This document shows, piece after piece, positions 28,370 through 43,905 of a stretch of DNA of 64,000 nt. The stretch's first letter is position 1. Each line of letters opens with the position of its first letter. The translations under genes and the position numbers were made by a program. The notes below the pieces were generated by a model. The model ran no database searches, was not told the origin of the DNA, and was given only the letters and a program-made list of their open reading frames with translations. The stretch comes from a virus. Taxonomy: Duplodnaviria; Caudoviricetes. Location: IMG/VR virus record IMGVR_UViG_3300044630_004720, one strand, 5' to 3'.

Positions 28370-28615
28370 ATGGTGAACAGAATCAAAAAATTAAAAGACA
28401 AAAACAAGAGATTAGTATTTTACAAAGATACATCTCTAATGTTAGCGATGTTCTTTCTACCTCTTGGATACGATGCACTATTCAAGCTGATGATGGAAGT
28501 GACAGGTTCGTATTGGGGAGCAGACGCTATCTTCTACTCAATTTCAGGATGTTTTTGGTTGTCTTATATCTTGCTTACGAGACACTTAAATAAAAAAGAA
28601 AACCTCCTAAGTTAG
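28370..28615 (+). CDS. Small two-TM membrane protein
   Basis: Two hydrophobic segments; terminator at 28599-28626. Confidence 0.6.
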   Translation: MVNRIKKLKDKNKRLVFYKDTSLMLAMFFLPLGYDALFKLMMEVTGSYWGADAIFYSISGCFWLSYILLTRHLNKKENLLS

Positions 28616-28737
28616 GAGGTTTTTTTATTTTGTACTGGCTTCTGTAATCCTTTTTTAAGTTCTTCTTTTTTTTGATTAGCATTTTTTGTTGCCTCTTTGT
28701 GTTTTTCGAGGATTTTCTTTTTTTCCTCTTCTTTCAT
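28612..28737 (-). CDS. 41-aa Lys/Glu-rich protein, absent from the ORF track
   Basis: Manual translation MKEEEKKKILEKHKEATKNANQKKEELKKGLQKPVQNKKTS. Confidence 0.55.
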   Translation of the reverse strand: MKEEEKKKILEKHKEATKNANQKKEELKKGLQKPVQNKKTS

Positions 28738-33024: not shown

Positions 33025-34713
33025 ATGAAAAAGATAACATTAAACGAACAAATAAACAGAGCAAGGCTTCTTATGGGTTATGACTCTGAAAAAACACTTT
33101 TTGAAAATGAAGATATCATTTTTGAGGGTGAGGAAGTGATTGCCGAACAACTTAAAAATTTATTAAGAACATTTAGTGATGACGCTATTAAACTTTTAGG
33201 TGGTGAAGTGAAAGGGATGGCTATGTTTGGTGATGATGCCGTTAAAGCAACAGAATTTTTAAAGAGAGCAAGAGCAGGAAAGGCAGCGGCTGGAGAACTT
33301 GGTACTTTCACTAAAGGAATTTTAAAAGATACAAAAATGGTCAAATCTAATCCTGGCCTTTTTGATGATGCAGTTGCAAACTACACGAAAGAATTAATGG
33401 GTTCAAAAAGTAGTTTAGCAACACAATTCCAAGGAGCATCGAGAGCTGACCGTGCAATGTTATTAAAGAACGCGGGTTATCCTGAAGCAACTATTAATAG
33501 AATATTAAAACAAACTGACAATTTAGGTGCTACAGCAGCTAAATCTGCTGATGATGTTGCAGCAGGTGCCTCTAAAGTACCGGGAAAAACTCCACCTACA
33601 CCGGGAAAAACTCCACCTACACCGGGAAAAACTCCACCTACACCGGGAAAAGTTCAGGCACCTGGTCCTGGCGGACAAAAACTTATAGATAGATGGAACA
33701 AAGCGAAAGAAACAGTTAAAAATTATAAAGATGATGTATTGAAAAAGATTCAAGGATTAAAAGGTAGACTTAGTCCAAAACAATTAGCTTTATATGGATT
33801 GGCCGGATATGGTGCTTACGAATTATTATTTGGTGATAAAGGAGATGAGAAAGGTCAAGACCAAGTACTTGGTGATTGTGTGGCTAATTTACCTGGTGTA
33901 ACATTTGGAATAGGAACCGGTGATGTTGCAATTGCACAAATACCTGATGGAGTTGATGAGAAATCAAAAGGTAAAGGTGGTTTAACTTTCTGGCCGAATG
34001 GTAGAGTAATTTCAGGTGACCTTTCAGTTAGAGGTAACTACTATTGTAAAGGTGGGGCAATTAAATCGGCAGTGGCTGAGAATCAAATTAATGAAGTAGA
34101 TTATAATGGTGTACACATTGATTGGGACGGAGATAAAAAAACTGACCCAGTCCCTAATCCTAAACCTAAACCTAAATATACACCTTGTACAAGTTTCCCA
34201 ATGAAATTTGGTTGTAAGAGTGATAAGATTAGAGAGGTACAGTCTTGTTTAGAAATGCCTCAAGAAAAACAAACAGGTAATTTTGGACCATTGACACAAA
34301 AGGCATTGACAGAAAAAGGATATAGTGGTACTGAACTTTCGGAACCTGATTATTTAAAAATATTAGAGAATTGCGGAAAAACAACGGAACCAGTTAAAAG
34401 AATTAATGCGGAACCTATTAAACTTGCTCCGAGAGATATTAAACCAGCACAAATTAATCTTAGTAATTTAAAATTACCAGATATTAAAGCACCTGAAGTA
34501 AGTGACGATGTATTCTACAACGCACTAAGAAGTAATGGTAATATTATTGGTGAAGATGGTAATAACAGAATAAAATATAAAGGTCCTGATTTGGACGAAT
34601 TACAAATAGGAAAATTAGATAACGTACTAAAAGGTATGAAATATACAAGAATCAAAACACTTGAGGATATTAAAAGATATGGTTCTAAATATGTATGGTT
34701 AAAAACTAAATAA
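33025..34713 (+). CDS. Large candidate virion protein with TM segment and PG-binding-like module
   Basis: MKKITLNEQI start; KFGCKSDKIREVQSCL...GNFGPLTQKAL resembles a PG-binding domain. Confidence 0.55.
   Translation: MKKITLNEQINRARLLMGYDSEKTLFENEDIIFEGEEVIAEQLKNLLRTFSDDAIKLLGGEVKGMAMFGDDAVKATEFLKRARAGKAAAGELGTFTKGILKDTKMVKSNPGLFDDAVANYTKELMGSKSSLATQFQGASRADRAMLLKNAGYPEATINRILKQTDNLGATAAKSADDVAAGASKVPGKTPPTPGKTPPTPGKTPPTPGKVQAPGPGGQKLIDRWNKAKETVKNYKDDVLKKIQGLKGRLSPKQLALYGLAGYGAYELLFGDKGDEKGQDQVLGDCVANLPGVTFGIGTGDVAIAQIPDGVDEKSKGKGGLTFWPNGRVISGDLSVRGNYYCKGGAIKSAVAENQINEVDYNGVHIDWDGDKKTDPVPNPKPKPKYTPCTSFPMKFGCKSDKIREVQSCLEMPQEKQTGNFGPLTQKALTEKGYSGTELSEPDYLKILENCGKTTEPVKRINAEPIKLAPRDIKPAQINLSNLKLPDIKAPEVSDDVFYNALRSNGNIIGEDGNNRIKYKGPDLDELQIGKLDNVLKGMKYTRIKTLEDIKRYGSKYVWLKTK
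33579..33651 (+). repeat. 21-bp tandem repeat (about 3.5 copies) encoding PGKTPPT
   Basis: ACCGGGAAAAACTCCACCTAC at 33579, 33600 and 33621, partial at 33642. Confidence 0.92.
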
Positions 34714-34716
34714 GTA

Positions 34717-35352
34717 ATGAATAACGATATCAATAAATTAATTAGAGAAGAATTAATCAAAAAGAGAAAAAATAATCTTGTTGAATCATTAAGTCCACTT
34801 AATGATATTGATGATAGGGATTTCTTTTTTCATAGTTATATTCAAAAATCCGCCAATCTTCTTGATGAAGGATATTCTATCGAGGAAATCGAGCAAATCG
34901 CCGAAAATATGTTTACCGATAAAATATTACAAGGAGGTGGAGGAGTAGCTAAAGATATTTGGGGAAGTACAAATATTTTAGATGCTCTTTTTGGTGGTGG
35001 TTTAGGTATGATTAAAGAACAAGTAATTAGATGGGTTCTTGTTAATTTAGGTGTTGGTAAAGGTGCTGCGAACTTTTTAGCTGCGTTTTTAGAACAAACT
35101 GACCCAAGAGAACTTTTAAGACTTTTCAAAAGTCCGGAAAGTTGTACATCAGGAATGCCTAAAATATCAGATGGTTTAATGGCCGGTATCGTTAGATATC
35201 TTCAATTTGGTGAAAAGGATGTTAAATTGTTTGACCAAAATAGTGACGTTTTAGGTTTGGGATTAGGTAACGTTTTAGATGAAGTAATAACACAATCCAA
35301 CATCGGAGAAAAAGTCGGTGAAAAACTTTGTGCGGCAATATGGAAAAGATAA
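34717..35352 (+). CDS. Hypothetical protein, Gly-rich with hydrophobic helix
   Basis: 211-aa ORF in the same operon. Confidence 0.75.
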   Translation: MNNDINKLIREELIKKRKNNLVESLSPLNDIDDRDFFFHSYIQKSANLLDEGYSIEEIEQIAENMFTDKILQGGGGVAKDIWGSTNILDALFGGGLGMIKEQVIRWVLVNLGVGKGAANFLAAFLEQTDPRELLRLFKSPESCTSGMPKISDGLMAGIVRYLQFGEKDVKLFDQNSDVLGLGLGNVLDEVITQSNIGEKVGEKLCAAIWKR

Positions 35353-36272
35353 AAGATAAAAATTATGTAAAATCTGAGATGTTTGAAATTGAACCTCAGG
35401 ATATTAATGAAGGATTTTGGGAAAATGCTTTATTGGTTGCGGGTTTTATACCTGTAATTGGTGAAGTTGCTGACACAATTTTAATTATAAAATATTGGAG
35501 AGAGGGTAGAAAAATCGAGGCCGGATTAATGTTATTAGCATTAATACCAACGGTAGGTGATATTATAGTAAAACCATTCTTAAGATTAGGTAAAGCAGCA
35601 GGAGCATTTAAAACCGCAACTACATTTACTAAATTCATAACCGAAAATCCACAAGCAAGGGCGGCATATGCTAAGATTGGTAAACAAATGGATAATCCTG
35701 CTATTAATAAATTAGTTGCTCAAGTAGGTAAGAAGACACCACAAGGTGCGGAAGCTCTTACAGGTGCTATTGCATATCAAAAAAGTTTATTTTCAAAAGT
35801 AGGAAGTACTGTAAGTGACGCAAGTGCGAAAGTAGGTTCAACATTGGAAAGAGGTCTTGGGAAGACTATGAAACAAACATTTCAAGACAAAGCATTACAA
35901 AAATATTTAATTAAAACCGGTGGAGTTGCTCCAAGTAATTTCTTATCAAGATGGTGGAACGTTGTTTATAAAGGTAGATTAGATAGAAAAAATGCAGTTA
36001 GAAAATTAATTTTTGGAAGTAACTTATTAGGTGCTTTAGGGTTTCCTAATATTGAATCGTTAGAGAGAGCAATGGCCGACCCAAAACAAGCTGACGAGTT
36101 AATGAAAAACCCACAATTTGCACAATTTTATAATCAAGCAACAACACCCGAAGAACAACAATCAATGGCACAACCAGAACCGGAAAAAGAATCTGGTATT
36201 GGTAATTTATTAGGTGGTGCAGGTTCATTCGTTGGATTAAATGTATTAAAAAGTTTAGCTCGTTTTGTTTAA
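35340..36272 (+). CDS. Protein with pre-toxin TG (PT-TG)-like N-terminal hairpin
   Basis: LLVAGFIPVIGEVAD...G...AGLMLLALIPTVGD. Confidence 0.6.
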   Translation: MEKIKDKNYVKSEMFEIEPQDINEGFWENALLVAGFIPVIGEVADTILIIKYWREGRKIEAGLMLLALIPTVGDIIVKPFLRLGKAAGAFKTATTFTKFITENPQARAAYAKIGKQMDNPAINKLVAQVGKKTPQGAEALTGAIAYQKSLFSKVGSTVSDASAKVGSTLERGLGKTMKQTFQDKALQKYLIKTGGVAPSNFLSRWWNVVYKGRLDRKNAVRKLIFGSNLLGALGFPNIESLERAMADPKQADELMKNPQFAQFYNQATTPEEQQSMAQPEPEKESGIGNLLGGAGSFVGLNVLKSLARFV

Positions 36273-36290
36273 TTATGATATTTATTATTA

Positions 36291-36390
36291 GAGTTTAATG
36301 GTTTGGTCACCATCAAACGATAATAATTGAAAAAACGAAAGGAGGTATTCAATCTCGGCAAAGGGGTCCTAAAGACCTCTTTGTTCGTTT
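36291..36390 (+). ncRNA. Candidate ~100-nt sRNA carrying an extended Shine-Dalgarno-like tract (sRNA-A)
   Basis: TATTTAT at 36279; hairpin 36301-36318; GAAAGGAGGTATTC at 36337-36350; 10-bp hairpin 36359-36383 with a G-U pair on this strand; no ATG/GTG/TTG after the SD. Confidence 0.5.
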
Positions 36391-36413
36391 ATACCTATTT
36401 ACTATAAACGGTA

Positions 36414-37358
36414 ATGTTAAATAAGATAAAACTTCACGTATTTGGTGATTCATTCACTCAAACATTTAAATCCCACCAATCAGGAGGCTCTGCTTGGGGT
36501 AAAAAATATATGGAATATATTGGAGAGGTTCCTGATAGTTATACCGAAATAATTGCAAATCATTTTGATTTTGATTTAAAAAATCACGCAATTGGTGGGT
36601 GTTCGAATTATACAATATTTGACACATTTTTAGAAAAAAGAAAAGAAATATCCCAAGGGGACGTTGTGATTTTTGGATGGACCGCAATTAATAGATTTAG
36701 AATTGCAAATCATCAAAATAGATATGTTGATATTTTACCAAATACACCTCATCCAAAACAAAATGATGATGTTGATTTAATTACCACACAAGAAATTGCA
36801 ATTAATAGAGATTCGTATAATGTATATTGGAAAGAATTAGAAAATTTCATTATTGTGATAAATGAATTATTAAAAAGTAATCAAGTATATCATTGGTCTT
36901 GGGTACAACCGTCAACTAATGTTGTGGATGCAATATGGTCAGAAGAAAATCAAAAAGATAAAAATGTTATGATGTCTAAATCTTGGAAAAATTTAGACAT
37001 CGATGTAAAAAATGCAATTGGTAGGAGTTGTGATGTATTGTTAGATATGTCAAAACCATTTGATATTGAGGAAATAAAATCGTTGGTTAGTGATGGTAAG
37101 AGAGTTTTTGGTGTGAACGTAGAATTATGTCCATTAAGTAATTTAGGACCGTTTTATAACACTTTTAATTGTGTTGAATATAACACCACAAATCATAAAA
37201 AAGAGTGTTTCAAATTGTTTATTCCATACTATAGTTATGAAACAATTAAACAGGAGACAAATGGAAATATACCTGATATCCATTATAGTAGGAATGGACA
37301 TAAAGAATTAGCAAATACGTTTATAGATTTAATAGAAACAAAAAAACCCATCAATTGA
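36414..37358 (+). CDS. SGNH/GDSL-like protein with insertion
   Basis: VFGDSFT; GGCSN; DIHYSRNGH. Confidence 0.7.
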   Translation: MLNKIKLHVFGDSFTQTFKSHQSGGSAWGKKYMEYIGEVPDSYTEIIANHFDFDLKNHAIGGCSNYTIFDTFLEKRKEISQGDVVIFGWTAINRFRIANHQNRYVDILPNTPHPKQNDDVDLITTQEIAINRDSYNVYWKELENFIIVINELLKSNQVYHWSWVQPSTNVVDAIWSEENQKDKNVMMSKSWKNLDIDVKNAIGRSCDVLLDMSKPFDIEEIKSLVSDGKRVFGVNVELCPLSNLGPFYNTFNCVEYNTTNHKKECFKLFIPYYSYETIKQETNGNIPDIHYSRNGHKELANTFIDLIETKKPIN

Positions 37359-37371
37359 TGGGTTTAATTTT

Positions 37372-37769
37372 TGGTGGAGGTGACGGGAGTCGAACCCGTG
37401 TCTTGCTCGTCATACCATAAACGGACTACACGTTTATTCAATTGGTTCTCAACTGACAAATAGAAGGTTAATTTCAGAAAACCTACAACACTGTTCCTAA
37501 CCGGATTTTCAAGAGCCGTCAGGTTTGCTCCAACACTCTAAGGTGGTGTTACACCGTAAGTACTTCTGTTCCTAGGTTATATGTACGTCGACCCGAGGTA
37601 GTACCTAACTTGGTTAGGCTGCTACTTTAGAAGTTGCAAGTAAACCTGCTACTTCCATTTGGTTGTAAACGTTGCCGTTTAAATTGTTTCACCATAGATT
37701 TAAGTCATAGATGAATTCTGACTACGTGCCCATTTACCATATCAACGCCAATCAATACCAAACACCCCC
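37372..37769 (-). ncRNA. ssrA: tmRNA
   Basis: 5' GGGGGTG pairs with 3' CACCTCC-A-CCA, including G3-U70; T-arm GGGTTCGACTCCC; tag ORF 37676-37614 (A)GNVYNQMEVAGLLATSKVAA*; promoter TACATTTG at 37784-37791. Confidence 0.93.
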
Positions 37770-40530: not shown

Positions 40531-41399
40531 GGCCGCACGGTCAATGTTTTTGTGAGGTCTCTTCCACCATTCAGTTTTACTAAACTGAAAAAAATAAAAA
40601 CTCTGAGATTACAAGTTTTAATAGTTGACTTTAGAAAGATTATTGTTTCCTTCCATATCCACGACCTTTTGAGTCGTACCAACCAGTGACGGTCAATTAG
40701 ATTAACCAATCCTTGAGTCATTAGATACTCTCACCATACTCATTACTCTTCGAGGTTGCCACCCCAACTCATCCTTGCGGGACTAGAGAACTTTCTCGTA
40801 ATTCACATCGGGTTTGGGACCCTTTGTGGCCGTGAACCCCTCACGACTATGTAGTCACCTGTCTCCAATGACTGACGGACACTTTTCCTTGTTTCTGTTA
40901 AGTTTGTTAAACCTTAATTAACAAAGTTTTTAGTTACCGATTTGGAAGGTAGCGGTCCGTCAACCAGCTTCTTCACCTTTTGAGCGAAGAAATACTAAAC
41001 TACCCTCTGAGACATCCCTGCCTCCACACTTTTGGACCCCTTCGAGATAAGAACCTTGGTAGATTCAAATCAAGGATTGTAACAGCACCACCTGTACACA
41101 ACCATACCTTTCGGTTTTAAGATTCCCATTGTATTGAATTCCGCAATAATATGATTGGAGGTCATATTTCTCACAACAATTCTACGAGTTATTCTTATTG
41201 GTGTTCCCACCTCAACCAAACGACCGGTATCGCTTGGTCATCAAATCACTTTCCCTACAGTGTTACCCTCAGTACTTAAGATTCAACGATATCCCGCTTG
41301 CCTACTCGAGTTCCCTTTCGGAAACCGCAAACCTAAACAACTAATTTAGATTCACTTTATACCGCTTTCACGGTTTATTTTAATCGACCATAGGCGGCC
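40531..41399 (-). ncRNA. Large (~870 nt) structured ncRNA, GOLLD-like in size and tRNA-adjacent context
   Basis: Termini pair (GGCCGC/GCGGCC and TGGTCGAT/ATTGACCG); several GNRA hairpins; no credible ORF; promoter TACATTTG at 41441-41448; terminator. Confidence 0.75.
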
Positions 41400-42069: not shown

Positions 42070-42082
42070 ATTTTTTTACTTG

Positions 42083-42156
42083 TGGACCAGCCTGGATTCG
42101 AACCAGGGACCTACTGATTATGAGTCAGGTGCTCTAACCTACTGAGCTACAAGTCC
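42083..42156 (-). tRNA. tRNA(CAT), probably Ile2 (lysidine type); elongator Met not excluded
   Basis: Cloverleaf GGACTTG.../CTGGTCC-A; anticodon loop CTCATAA. Confidence 0.85.
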
Positions 42157-42179
42157 ATATCGTGCGATTACACGATGTG

Positions 42180-42668
42180 TTATTTCCAAAATACTGAAAC
42201 TAAAAGAATCACTAATGCCAATGTTAATTGAACTAAAGTTTTCATCGTGAACGGTTGTCCAAAATGATATGGATATAACATTGCAGCGACGAAAATTCCT
42301 GTAACAAAAAACAGGAATCGGTTACTCCACATTTCACCATTAAATGCTTTAACTCCATAATGTGAACCAACAATCCATAAAAAAGTAATTGCAGGTGCAA
42401 TCAAATATGGCCAAGGAGTCTTAACCCAATTCGGCATTTTAAATTGCCAATACATAATATACCAATGACCAAATGAACCTAAAAAGAAAAGTCCAAATGA
42501 GTATATTAAATAAATTATTTGTTGTTTTCCCATAAATTTTTTTTGTTGTTGTAGTCTAACTCCTTTGTACTCGATATTTGAATTTGAGTTAAACTCATCT
42601 AAAGATTGTATATATGTTTTACCATCTTCAGTTGGGAATGTTTTTATTAAATGTTCTTCTCTATTCAT
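42180..42668 (-). CDS. Four-TM membrane protein
   Basis: Four hydrophobic segments; lies between tRNA genes. Confidence 0.7.
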   Translation of the reverse strand: MNREEHLIKTFPTEDGKTYIQSLDEFNSNSNIEYKGVRLQQQKKFMGKQQIIYLIYSFGLFFLGSFGHWYIMYWQFKMPNWVKTPWPYLIAPAITFLWIVGSHYGVKAFNGEMWSNRFLFFVTGIFVAAMLYPYHFGQPFTMKTLVQLTLALVILLVSVFWK

Positions 42669-42678
42669 AACATTTCCG

Positions 42679-42752
42679 TGATTCCGATTGGATTCGAACC
42701 AATGACCTACTCTTTAGAAGAGAGTTGCTCTATCCAACTGAGCTACGAAACC
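42679..42752 (-). tRNA. tRNA-Arg(TCT)
   Basis: Anticodon stem ACTCT/AGAGT, loop CTTCTAA. Confidence 0.92.
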
Positions 42753-42790
42753 AAATAACACTACCGTCTTTGAAAGTTTTTATTTAATTG

Positions 42791-43039
42791 TTATGCCTTA
42801 CGGCTAGTTATTAATTTACTTTCAAGTTTATCTAAACGTGAATCTAATGCCCTATAAACATCATTAATTGCATTTTCACGTTCTCTGTTTTGAATTTCAA
42901 TTTCTCTTCCGAGACATTGTTGCACTTCTTCAATTTCTTTGTTATGTTTTTTCACCTTAACAAAGGCCATTACAGCAACTACCGCAACTGCGATAACCAC
43001 CACAACGGACATTCCTAAAATAAATGATAATATATCCAT
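42791..43039 (-). CDS. TM plus coiled-coil protein
   Basis: ATG 43039; N-terminal hydrophobic helix. Confidence 0.7.
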   Translation of the reverse strand: MDILSFILGMSVVVVIAVAVVAVMAFVKVKKHNKEIEEVQQCLGREIEIQNRERENAINDVYRALDSRLDKLESKLITSRKA

Positions 43040-43079
43040 ATTATGTTTCTCCTTTATTTTCAAAGAACGATAGTGTTTG

Positions 43080-43165
43080 TACCTGGGGCGGGAATCGAAC
43101 CCGCACGGACCTTACGGTCCAACAGATTTTAAGTCTGTCTTGTCTACCTATTCCAACACCCAGGC
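43080..43165 (-). tRNA. tRNA-Leu(TAA)
   Basis: ACAGA/TCTGT stem, loop CTTAAAA, long variable arm. Confidence 0.93.
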
Positions 43166-43255
43166 AGTTTATTTAAAACGTCAAAGAACCCTAATTAAAG
43201 TATAAGGAAAATTTTTAATAAAAAAAAACCCGAACAAAAAATTTTCGGGAGTCAG

Positions 43256-43327
43256 TACTCGGTACGGGATTCGAACCCGTGCTACGTCCGTGAAAGGGAC
43301 GCGACCTAACCACTAGTCGAACCGAGC
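43256..43327 (-). tRNA. tRNA-Glu(TTC)
   Basis: CGTCC/GGACG stem, loop CTTTCAC. Confidence 0.93.
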
Positions 43328-43422
43328 AAATAAGAACTAACATTGCTATCAGGGTTTAAATGGTTCACAGATAAATCCGAATCACCACCTACCGATTTTA
43401 CGGTATCTTAGTTAATTCTTTG

Positions 43423-43509
43423 CGGAGGCTCAGGGATTCGAACCCCAGATACCGTTTCCAGTATGACGGTTTTCAAGACCGTTCCATTCAACCACTCTGG
43501 CAAGCCTCC
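43423..43509 (-). tRNA. tRNA-Ser(TGA)
   Basis: ACGGT/ACCGT stem, loop CTTGAAA, long variable arm. Confidence 0.93.
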
Positions 43510-43513
43510 AATC

Positions 43514-43675
43514 GTTGTTTCAACTTGCAAGTTTACTCTTAACATCTCTTTCTCTACAACGACTGAACTTAATCACATTTGTAGTCCGAATGTGGCGTTG
43601 GGTAATTACTCCGTGCCTCTATGTAACTCTATGTACCTTGCTTTGTTACTAAGCGTGTTAAGTGTATGAAACAAC
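43514..43675 (-). ncRNA. Candidate 162-nt structured RNA between tRNA-Asp and tRNA-Ser
   Basis: 9-bp terminal stem GTTGTTTCA/TGAAACAAC continued by a 10/11-bp stem; internal hairpins. Confidence 0.6.
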
Positions 43676-43678
43676 TTG

Positions 43679-43750
43679 CGGTCCCACCGGGAATCGAACC
43701 CGGCACTTTGCCGTGACAGGGCAATATTATAGCCGATTAACTATAGGACC
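43679..43750 (-). tRNA. tRNA-Asp(GTC)
   Basis: TTGCC/GGCAA stem, loop CTGTCAC. Confidence 0.93.
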
Positions 43751-43833
43751 GTTTTGATTCTAACTCATCTTAAGTTGCACCACCCAAGTCATAGCTCTGG
43801 TTGACAAAGTCCTCGTTGAGTTAGTCTCAATTG

Positions 43834-43905
43834 TTGCGAGAGGGGGAATCGAACCCCCGACCTCAAGGTTATGAGCCTTGCGAGCTACCGCTGCTCTATC
43901 TCACG
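43834..43905 (-). tRNA. Initiator tRNA-fMet(CAT)
   Basis: C1xA72 mismatch, A11-U24, loop CTCATAA; promoter TATCTTTG at 43918-43925. Confidence 0.88.

Follow-up and report, generated by a model that had tools for sequence, protein, structure and literature searches.

The DNA studied here, referred to throughout as the window, is a stretch of 64,000 nucleotides from a virus of the Caudoviricetes (IMG/VR record IMGVR_UViG_3300044630_004720), an AT-rich piece (33% G+C) of a large phage. A spacer of 141 nt (36273–36413), between two + strand open reading frames (ORFs) of unknown family at 35328–36272 and 36414–37358, holds a compact unit, here called the element, that is predicted to encode a non-coding RNA. 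Between its two hairpins this RNA would display an extended Shine–Dalgarno (SD) tract that is complementary to the 3′ tail of Bacteroidia 16S rRNA and resembles the leader of the host gene for ribosomal protein bS21, rpsU. An original prediction, made from the sequence of the window alone, had proposed an SD-decoy RNA with a promoter motif, a 5′ hairpin, the SD tract and a terminator-like hairpin. All four parts were found, the motif TATTTAT at 36279–36285 being read here as part of the octamer ATATTTAT; their coordinates are collected in Table 1.

Table 1. Parts of the element, the second RNA of the window and examples of the promoter-like motif
Feature	Position	Strand	Remarks
Promoter-like octamer ATATTTAT	36278–36285	+	same motif upstream of other genes of the window
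Predicted ~100-nt non-coding RNA	36290–36391	+	5′ end inferred at AGAG, 3′ end after U-rich tail
5′ hairpin, invariant apex GGUUUGGUC(A/G)CC at 36300–36311	36293–36318	+	9 pairs, 6 with compensatory changes
Conserved GAUAA, opposite conserved 5′ AGAG	36319–36323	+	ATAA invariant in 67 sequences
Variable A-rich linker, ends AAACG	36324–36336	+	drifts in sequence and length between copies; co-varies with partner RNA of the same genome
Extended SD tract GAAAGGAGGUAUUC (= GAAAGGAGGTATTC)	36337–36350	+	unpaired in consensus fold
Invariant AUCUC(G)	36352–36357	+	AUC in place of the host rpsU AUG; can be paired by the partner RNA
3′ hairpin, terminator-like	36357–36385	+	at least 9 pairs, 98% of cells paired, 3 pairs with compensatory changes
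Conserved tail UUCGUUUA	36385–36391	+	can pair with AAACGA 36333–36338 in minimum-energy fold; one-sided changes only
Gene of the partner RNA, with ATATTTAT of its own, two hairpins and a strong terminator	56714–56828	-	conserved in 17/21 related contigs
ATATTTAT 4–6 nt before ATG, examples	661, 5158, 5481, 29426, 30437, 44076	+	
ATATTTAT 4–6 nt before ATG, examples	11796, 16295	-	

Conservation and structure of the element

Copies of the element were collected by three pattern scans of IMG/VR (the SD tract with AUCUCGGCAAAGG; the hairpin apex with the SD tract; and the apex with AUCUC, leaving the SD free), from which GC-rich and other unrelated chance matches were discarded. Together these scans yielded 71 distinct copies; for the first 33 of them and the window the search pattern did not force the hairpin apex. 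A metagenome scan with the SD-free pattern added ~ 30 further copies, giving ~ 100 distinct copies in all on freshwater phage contigs, one per contig. Three phage contigs were reached through homologues of the two flanking proteins; the element was present on two of them, and the flanking genes were found to differ, contig L001 sharing the downstream gene only and contig L003 the upstream gene only. The borders of conservation are sharp: across the 71 unique copies it starts at ATATTTAT and stops at GUU(C)GUUU, beyond which the sequences are unalignable, and the element is 81–85% identical between genomes, as against 68–72% for the flanking coding DNA.

A covariance model of the family (R1) scored the window copy at 117 bits (E = 1e-27) and found exactly one strong match in each of 21 long phage contigs; within the window it detected no second copy, the next best match reaching 19 bits (E = 0.03). 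At the locus, a search of Rfam 15 returned nothing at gathering thresholds, the best sub-threshold matches having E = 2.7 and 6.9. When the 2.1-kb locus was compared by blastn with 50,697 GenBank phage records, there were zero matches and hence neither a cultured relative nor a known host.

The consensus fold calculated with RNAalifold consists of two hairpins and leaves the SD tract unpaired. In this fold 97% of the paired cells of the alignment can pair (95.9% for the 5′ hairpin), compared with 40–71% when the partners are slid out of register. Compensatory changes occur at nine of the 18 pairs, and double changes were counted in 73 cells, compared with 24 in shuffled alignments, none of 500 shuffles reaching the observed value. 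The apex of the 3′ hairpin has been swapped outright in subfamilies. G–U pairs are frequent on the + strand (65/66 at one pair), and since these would be A–C mismatches on the other strand, the RNA would be read from the + strand. The spacer on its own also folded better than 200/200 shuffles (z = -4.2). Taken together, this comparative evidence indicates that the element is a structured RNA, with predicted helices kept by compensatory changes on the + strand only. The invariant parts are the promoter octamer (bar the first base of one copy), GGUUUGGUC(A/G)CC, (G)AUAA, AA.GAAA.GG.GG and AUCUC.

Two further sets of pairings were considered and are not claimed. An outer stem of the 5′ hairpin overlaps the promoter in part, and its register varies from copy to copy, and two helices that would mask the SD tract, the long-range AAACGA/UCGUUU and the local GAGGU/AUCUC, fit all variants but with one-sided changes only.

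The octamer reads ATATTTAT in 66 of the 67 aligned copies and GTATTTAT in the remaining one, so that seven of its eight positions are invariant. In the window it also stands 4–6 nt ahead of the ATG of at least nine genes, as well as ahead of the partner RNA described below and of a seven-tRNA array (42082–43905, - strand). This placement suggests that ATATTTAT is a phage promoter that would give rise to leaderless mRNAs, a reading that fits a host that ignores SDs; by analogy with the leaderless genes, the RNA of the element would start at the conserved AGAG, at about 36290. At the other end, the 3′ hairpin and following T residues pass a lenient terminator rule in 63/71 copies, and a second, canonical terminator lies within 60 nt in 23/71. 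Parts of the locus were recovered from four freshwater RNA-library runs, as contigs covering 35900–36352, 36174–36344, 36295–36452 and 36059–36260.

The genomic company of the element was assessed in relatives. The protein bS21 (Pfam S21) is encoded in 18 of the 21 element-bearing contigs, among them each of the three with a completeness of 90% or more; the contigs that lack it, three in number, are fragments (27–54% complete). In the 18 contigs with bS21 the distance from element to bS21 gene is 21–40 kb, and the two always lie on opposite strands. The bS21 gene of the relative G001 is preceded by ATATTTAT at a distance of 20 nt and lacks an SD. A study of bS21-encoding freshwater Bacteroidetes phages (Chen et al. 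2022, PMC9723584) describes similar genomes, of up to ~ 335 kb and from freshwater, with bS21 likewise on the strand opposite the structural genes; its abstract and headings mention the bS21 protein and no RNA.

The Shine–Dalgarno tract and the host rpsU leader

The strength of the SD tract was assessed by pairing every 23-nt stretch of both strands of the window with the 16S tail of Flavobacterium johnsoniae. The element proved to be the strongest tail-pairing site of the window, at -19.7 kcal/mol, and GAAAGGAGG occurs in the 64 kb only once. The genes of the window avoid SDs, with a mean pairing energy of -2.7 kcal/mol for upstream regions and -4.4 kcal/mol for gene interiors (78 predicted genes), which is the pattern reported for Flavobacteriales (PMC9976891). 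For none of the 78 does an upstream site reach -10 kcal/mol, which bears out the original prediction that no comparable SD precedes a gene in the window.

Other AGGAGG hexamers of the window lie mostly inside ORFs or in terminator stems; most of the intergenic ones belong to two bidirectional terminator hairpins with stems AGGAGG/CCUCCU, at 28603–28620 and 52734–52755. A separate observation was made at 2093–2115, where the + strand mRNA of the ORF at 1447–2775 carries GAACACCUCC, a 10-nt copy of the 16S tail. The complement of this site is the second-best tail pairing of the window (-19.6 kcal/mol) and may be due to chance, ~ 0.1 such sites being expected in 128 kb.

The ends of 16S genes were next sought in 201 genomes of the class Bacteroidia, and the tail was recovered in 39. 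The tail GGAACACCUCCUUUCU (GGAACACC..) was present in 24 of these and GGAAUACCUCCUUUCU (GGAAUACC..) in ten, while GGACCACC.. and GGAUUACC.. accounted for three and two, respectively. The Bacteroidia tail is thus polymorphic just 5′ of the anti-SD, where ACA, AUA, UUA or CCA is found. The tail given in the original prediction, GGAACACCUCCUUUCU, was correct, being the complement of oligo T1 in PMC13000453. The window copy matches its complement at 13 of 14 positions (-19.7 kcal/mol), as had been stated, and it also matches the natural AUA variant GGAAUACCUCCUUUCU at 14/14, forming 14 bp at -24.0 kcal/mol.

Across the family, the tract has been retained in the ~ 100 distinct copies while both the linker on its 5′ side and the spacer on its 3′ side vary in length and sequence, as the original prediction would expect of a functional site. 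The core GG(A/G)GG is kept in every copy found with the SD-free pattern. Two main alleles occur among those copies, GGAGGUAUUC and GGAGGUGUUC, which are exact complements of the tails GGAAUACCUCC and GGAACACCUCC, the two commonest Bacteroidia 16S tails found; GGAGGUGUUC is the perfect 16S complement that had been predicted. The GGAGGUG and GGAGGUA alleles are each present on both 3′-hairpin backbones, and the allele must therefore have switched on more than one occasion or have been transferred by recombination. With the best of the four tails the family has a mean pairing energy of -22.4 kcal/mol (range -16 to -27.6), and against the ACA tail it forms 9–14 contiguous pairs; the best-fitting tail is AUA for 45 copies and ACA for 23. 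SD variants for the alternative anti-SD UCUCA or for other tails were sought among the ~ 100 copies and none was found. Three GGAGGGG.. copies were considered as CCA-tail variants, and their fit was only slightly better and not convincing.

In Flavobacteriales, rpsU is typically the sole gene with such an SD, and this SD is preferentially read by ribosomes that lack bS21, leading to autoregulation (PMC7797042, PMC9976891, PMC13000453). The extended SD of rpsU type has 9–13 or more consecutive pairs with the 16S tail and a pairing energy of about -14 to -21 kcal/mol (PMC9976891). By its predicted pairing the element is an extended SD of this type, with energies inside or beyond the published range.

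Regions upstream of rpsU were then extracted from Bacteroidia genomes and tallied for 101 of them, including the unpublished genome G092, which was used in this tally only. Host leaders with an extended SD, for example ..AAACGAGAGGAGGUAUUUUUAAUC AUG and ..GAACGAGAGGAGGUGUUAUAAAUU AUG, follow the pattern AACGA(A/G)AGGAGGU(A/G)U...AAUC AUG, and the element reads AAACGAAA(A)GGAGGU(A/G)UUC(UA)AAUC UCG. The rpsU leader followed the tail of its own genome in 7/7 cases, as GGAGGUG in hosts with the ACA tail (5/5) and as GGAGGUA in those with the AUA tail (2/2). The sections consulted of the literature on this circuit make no mention of covariation between tail and leader as a layer of the SD–anti-SD interaction.

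The likeness between element and rpsU leader (Jha 2021, PMC7797042; McNutt 2023, PMC9976891; Naeem 2026, PMC13000453) therefore extends to the number of consecutive tail pairs (9–14), the pairing energy (-16 to -28 kcal/mol), the flanks AACGA(A/G)AGGAGGU(A/G)U...AAUC, the covariation with ACA and AUA tails, and the status of a rare strong SD in an SD-avoiding genome. Unlike the leader, the element has neither a start codon nor a bS21 ORF, UCG or AUC standing in the place of the AUG; it is encoded by a phage, follows a phage promoter motif, lies between two conserved hairpins and has a second RNA as its partner, and the phage bS21 gene is 21–40 kb distant and without an SD of its own. An AUG 8–12 nt past the core followed by a bS21 ORF, as in rpsU, was looked for in the element and not found, bS21 being encoded elsewhere.

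More generally, ATG, GTG or TTG occurs 3–13 nt after the core in 0/71 copies. The claim that no start codon lies downstream of the SD consequently holds at SD spacing, but not in its broadest form, a TTG being present in the 3′ arm of the hairpin ~ 35 nt on. A mini-ORF in the 5′ hairpin (NTG GTT TGG TCR CC) was also considered and rejected: its start codon is absent in 20/71 copies, its frame spans anything from 0 to over 40 codons, and GTT keeps its third base throughout, while covariation is seen at the stem positions.

The partner RNA and the weighing of explanations

A second predicted RNA, at 56714–56828 on the - strand, is 73–90% identical across the 17 related contigs that have it and lies on the same strand as bS21. 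It was considered as a paralogue of the element, and this was rejected; it scores 12.8 bits with model R1 and is related to the element as a complement only. Three blocks of it (56807–56797, 56793–56779 and 56749–56738) are complementary to the element in a colinear, antiparallel order: the element apex pairs with partner GACC..AAACC, the linker and CGAAA(A)GG pair with CCUUU(U)CGUUUU.., and (A)AUC..G(A/G)CAAAG pairs with CUUUG(U/C)CGAU.

The two RNAs change together. The number of A residues in CGAAA(A)GG of the element tracks the number of U residues in CCUUU(U)CG of the partner; in genomes of the G112 type AGACU is common to both RNAs, and in G108 a compensatory ATTTTAAACG lies opposite CGTTTAAAAT. 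At a variable G/A–C/U pair, G–C was counted eight times, A–U six times, G–U four times and A–C never. Pairing between cognate RNAs averaged -16.2 kcal/mol, compared with -12.6 kcal/mol for non-cognate combinations (permutation p ~ 5e-5, not corrected for relatedness), and the whole-RNA duplex had an energy of -52.9, compared with -35.6 ± 5.1 for shuffles. As judged from this extended, co-varying complementarity, the element and its partner are a predicted trans-encoded antisense pair. The SD core and its 3′ extension, (A)GGU(A/G)UUC, are left out of the complementarity, and for that reason the conservation of the core and the allele pattern call for another ligand, of which the 16S tail is the obvious one. 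The partner segment ..GAUUACCU-UUUCGUUUU.. itself resembles the Bacteroidia 16S tail (natural variant GGAUUACCUCCUUUCU) minus two core bases, and the partner could thus also pair with host rpsU leaders.

The best interpretation of these data, which we regard as evenly balanced between true and false, is that the element is an ORF-less mimic of the rpsU leader that would bind the freed 16S tail of bS21-free subunits. In these hosts bS21, bS18 and bS6 bury the tail; an SD of this kind can accordingly be read only by 30S subunits that are free of bS21, and such subunits normally employ the extended SD to produce further host bS21. The phage would supply an independently promoted, single-copy RNA of ~ 100 nt, kept in bS21-encoding freshwater Bacteroidota phages, whose single-stranded centre would be the host rpsU initiation region without its ORF, with an extended SD of 10–14 nt tuned to the host tail. 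This RNA would most likely anneal to the freed tail and occupy bS21-free subunits in competition with the host rpsU mRNA. Another possible effect would be to keep the tail from its pocket during the installation of phage bS21. In both cases, the host bS21 feedback would be blunted while the phage makes its own, SD-less bS21. The partner RNA, by pairing with both flanks of the SD, would probably mask or time it.

A fuller version, to which we give only tentative credence, is a two-RNA device directed against the host's only SD-dependent circuit. Here an allele-tuned copy of the rpsU site would capture bS21-free 30S subunits, the tail-like RNA would act as a gate by pairing with that copy, and potentially with the host rpsU leader, and phage bS21 would take over the ribosome pool. 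The family and its structure, the lack of an ORF, the complementarity, the match of alleles to natural tails, the likeness to rpsU leaders, the linkage with bS21 and the co-evolving partner stand on the sequences analysed, as does the conserved tract of the originally proposed non-coding SD decoy; the binding of 30S, the 'late' timing and the effect on translation we infer, as we do transcription from ATATTTAT and the effect on host bS21.

Several observations weigh against the proposal that the element binds the freed tail. Its RNA would have to be abundant to titrate ribosomes, because each molecule carries one binding site. The match of alleles to tails holds at the population level only, because no phage–host pair is known. 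The co-evolving partner is another ligand that shapes the flanks, and ribosome binding may therefore not be the primary job of the RNA. In the minimum-energy fold, part of the SD tract is masked by short helices, and the invariant AUCUC and the invariant hairpin apex are explained only partly. As to the transcript itself, the 3′ hairpin is weak by strict rules and is not listed by a stricter terminator scan; the metatranscriptome contigs, of depth ~ 5, run across the 5′ or 3′ border, and carry-over of DNA is possible.

It could instead be that the element is mainly one half of an antisense pair, the RNA at 56.8 kb being the effector that masks the host rpsU leader and the element its sponge, antidote or target, and that the SD owes its look only to descent from, or copying of, that leader. 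We consider this unlikely, though a serious contender. The three colinear blocks, the tracked A and U counts, the G108 compensation, the want of A–C at the variable pair, the greater stability of cognate pairing and a duplex energy beyond that of shuffles are what it would predict, with the caveat on relatedness already attached to the permutation test. What it leaves aside is that the skipped (A)GGU(A/G)UUC is the most conserved single-stranded stretch and has alleles that match 16S tails, which would be needless for a mere sponge. The same promoter motif on both RNAs would also be odd for antagonists. The two readings are not exclusive.

Improbable, in our judgement, is that the RNA exists to bind protein, its SD–anti-SD-like helix, formed alone or with the partner, holding host or phage bS21 as a sponge or loading platform. 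There is a precedent in an SD–anti-SD mimic within a non-coding RNA that binds bS21 (PMC12054373), and GAAAGG/CCUUUC, which corresponds to the distal portion of an extended SD–anti-SD helix, can be formed between element and partner. The linkage to phage bS21 is in keeping with this, and a protein site would be expected to show the invariance seen in the apex and in the AGAG/GAUAA loop. However, GGAGG is bulged in the predicted two-RNA duplex and the partner has no intact CCUCC, which would make the mimic incomplete, and the match of the A/G alleles points to the real 16S tail as the ligand.

The tract might also be a genuine initiation region, with a start at the invariant AUC that yields a tiny peptide or opens the 3′ hairpin, in the manner of a ribosome-dependent attenuator of the downstream gene. 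The AUC is present in 71/71 copies, at an ideal 6–9 nt past the core in 70 and at 12 nt in one, with the hairpin directly after it, and one of the metatranscriptome contigs extends from the element into the gene that follows. This is nevertheless very improbable. AUC works very poorly as a start codon in those bacteria in which it has been tested. The frames that it opens end after 6 codons in many copies and run to more than 20 or more than 25 in others, and over the 71 copies they encode no conserved peptide beyond the residues set by the stem, which is in line with the original expectation that no translated small ORF would explain the SD. The downstream genes differ between genomes, and the second canonical terminator noted above would intervene in part of the copies.

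Finally, a passive spacer, consisting of a late promoter, a terminator and a decaying remnant of a captured rpsU leader without a function of its own, would suit the position between two same-strand genes and the promoter-like and terminator-like ends, but it is hardly credible and already disfavoured for a sequence that is conserved beyond the neighbouring coding DNA, is retained when its neighbours change, covaries in both helices, has an invariant SD in ~ 100 copies with alleles that track 16S tails, and co-evolves with a second RNA.

Relation to other RNAs and meaning

Besides the element and its partner, the window carries a full-length GOLLD RNA (320 bits) at 40600–41007 (- strand) and, adjoining it, a phage tmRNA at 37372–37769 (- strand) whose 20-residue tag is unusual and ends in AA. 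At 33579–33651, inside the ORF at 33025–34713, a perfect tandem repeat of 21 nt (3.5 copies) was also noted; it encodes a repeated 7-residue unit, and the protein adjoins a tape-measure-like gene.

Bacteria possess other RNAs that imitate nucleic acids. The 6S RNA is an open-promoter mimic for RNA polymerase, and CsrB and RsmZ are sponges that present GGA motifs to CsrA. By analogy, the element would share with them the non-coding imitation of the natural nucleic-acid ligand of a central machine, with titration as the proposed outcome. Unlike these RNAs, its proposed target is the 16S tail of a sub-population of ribosomes, and it has one site, in contrast to the many of RNAs of the CsrB/RsmZ type.

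A closer relative in concept is OLE RNA's P6 segment (PMC12054373), which like the element is a non-coding copy of the interaction that docks mRNA on the ribosome, with a tie to bS21. In OLE, a cellular Bacillota RNA of ~ 600 nt, both strands of the mimic sit on a single molecule, whereas the element has the SD strand only, in a phage RNA of ~ 100 nt, with a possible second strand on another RNA whose core is incomplete. The cow-rumen-4 motif of Rfam (RF02948), one of the only two matches at the locus and like the other below threshold, also has a hairpin followed by an AAGGAGG tract; the element does not belong to that family, scoring 15.1 bits (E = 6.9) against a gathering score of 48.5. For an RNA such as the element, no description was found in the literature and no model in Rfam, and no described example of a natural RNA decoy aimed at the anti-SD was found in the literature.

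The element bears on why bS21 is so common in aquatic phages and on how a phage-encoded copy could take the place of the host protein. Work of the Fredrick laboratory has shown that Bacteroidia retain a single SD-dependent circuit, the autoregulation of rpsU by ribosomes without bS21, which was speculated to be a host counter-measure to phage bS21 (McNutt et al., PMC9976891), and the element is a concrete, phage-encoded candidate for a counter-move to it. If the element binds the freed tail, it would represent a new class of ribosome-directed RNA mimic and a natural tool for selecting a ribosome sub-population; if the two-RNA device is true, it would be the first natural RNA decoy of the anti-Shine–Dalgarno tail, and a phage-encoded ribosomal protein would for the first time have an RNA partner. 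For uncultured phages, the A or G of the allele could be used to mark host range. Whichever reading holds, the least novel included, the genomes of huge phages contain here two well-supported families of non-coding RNA that are absent from Rfam.

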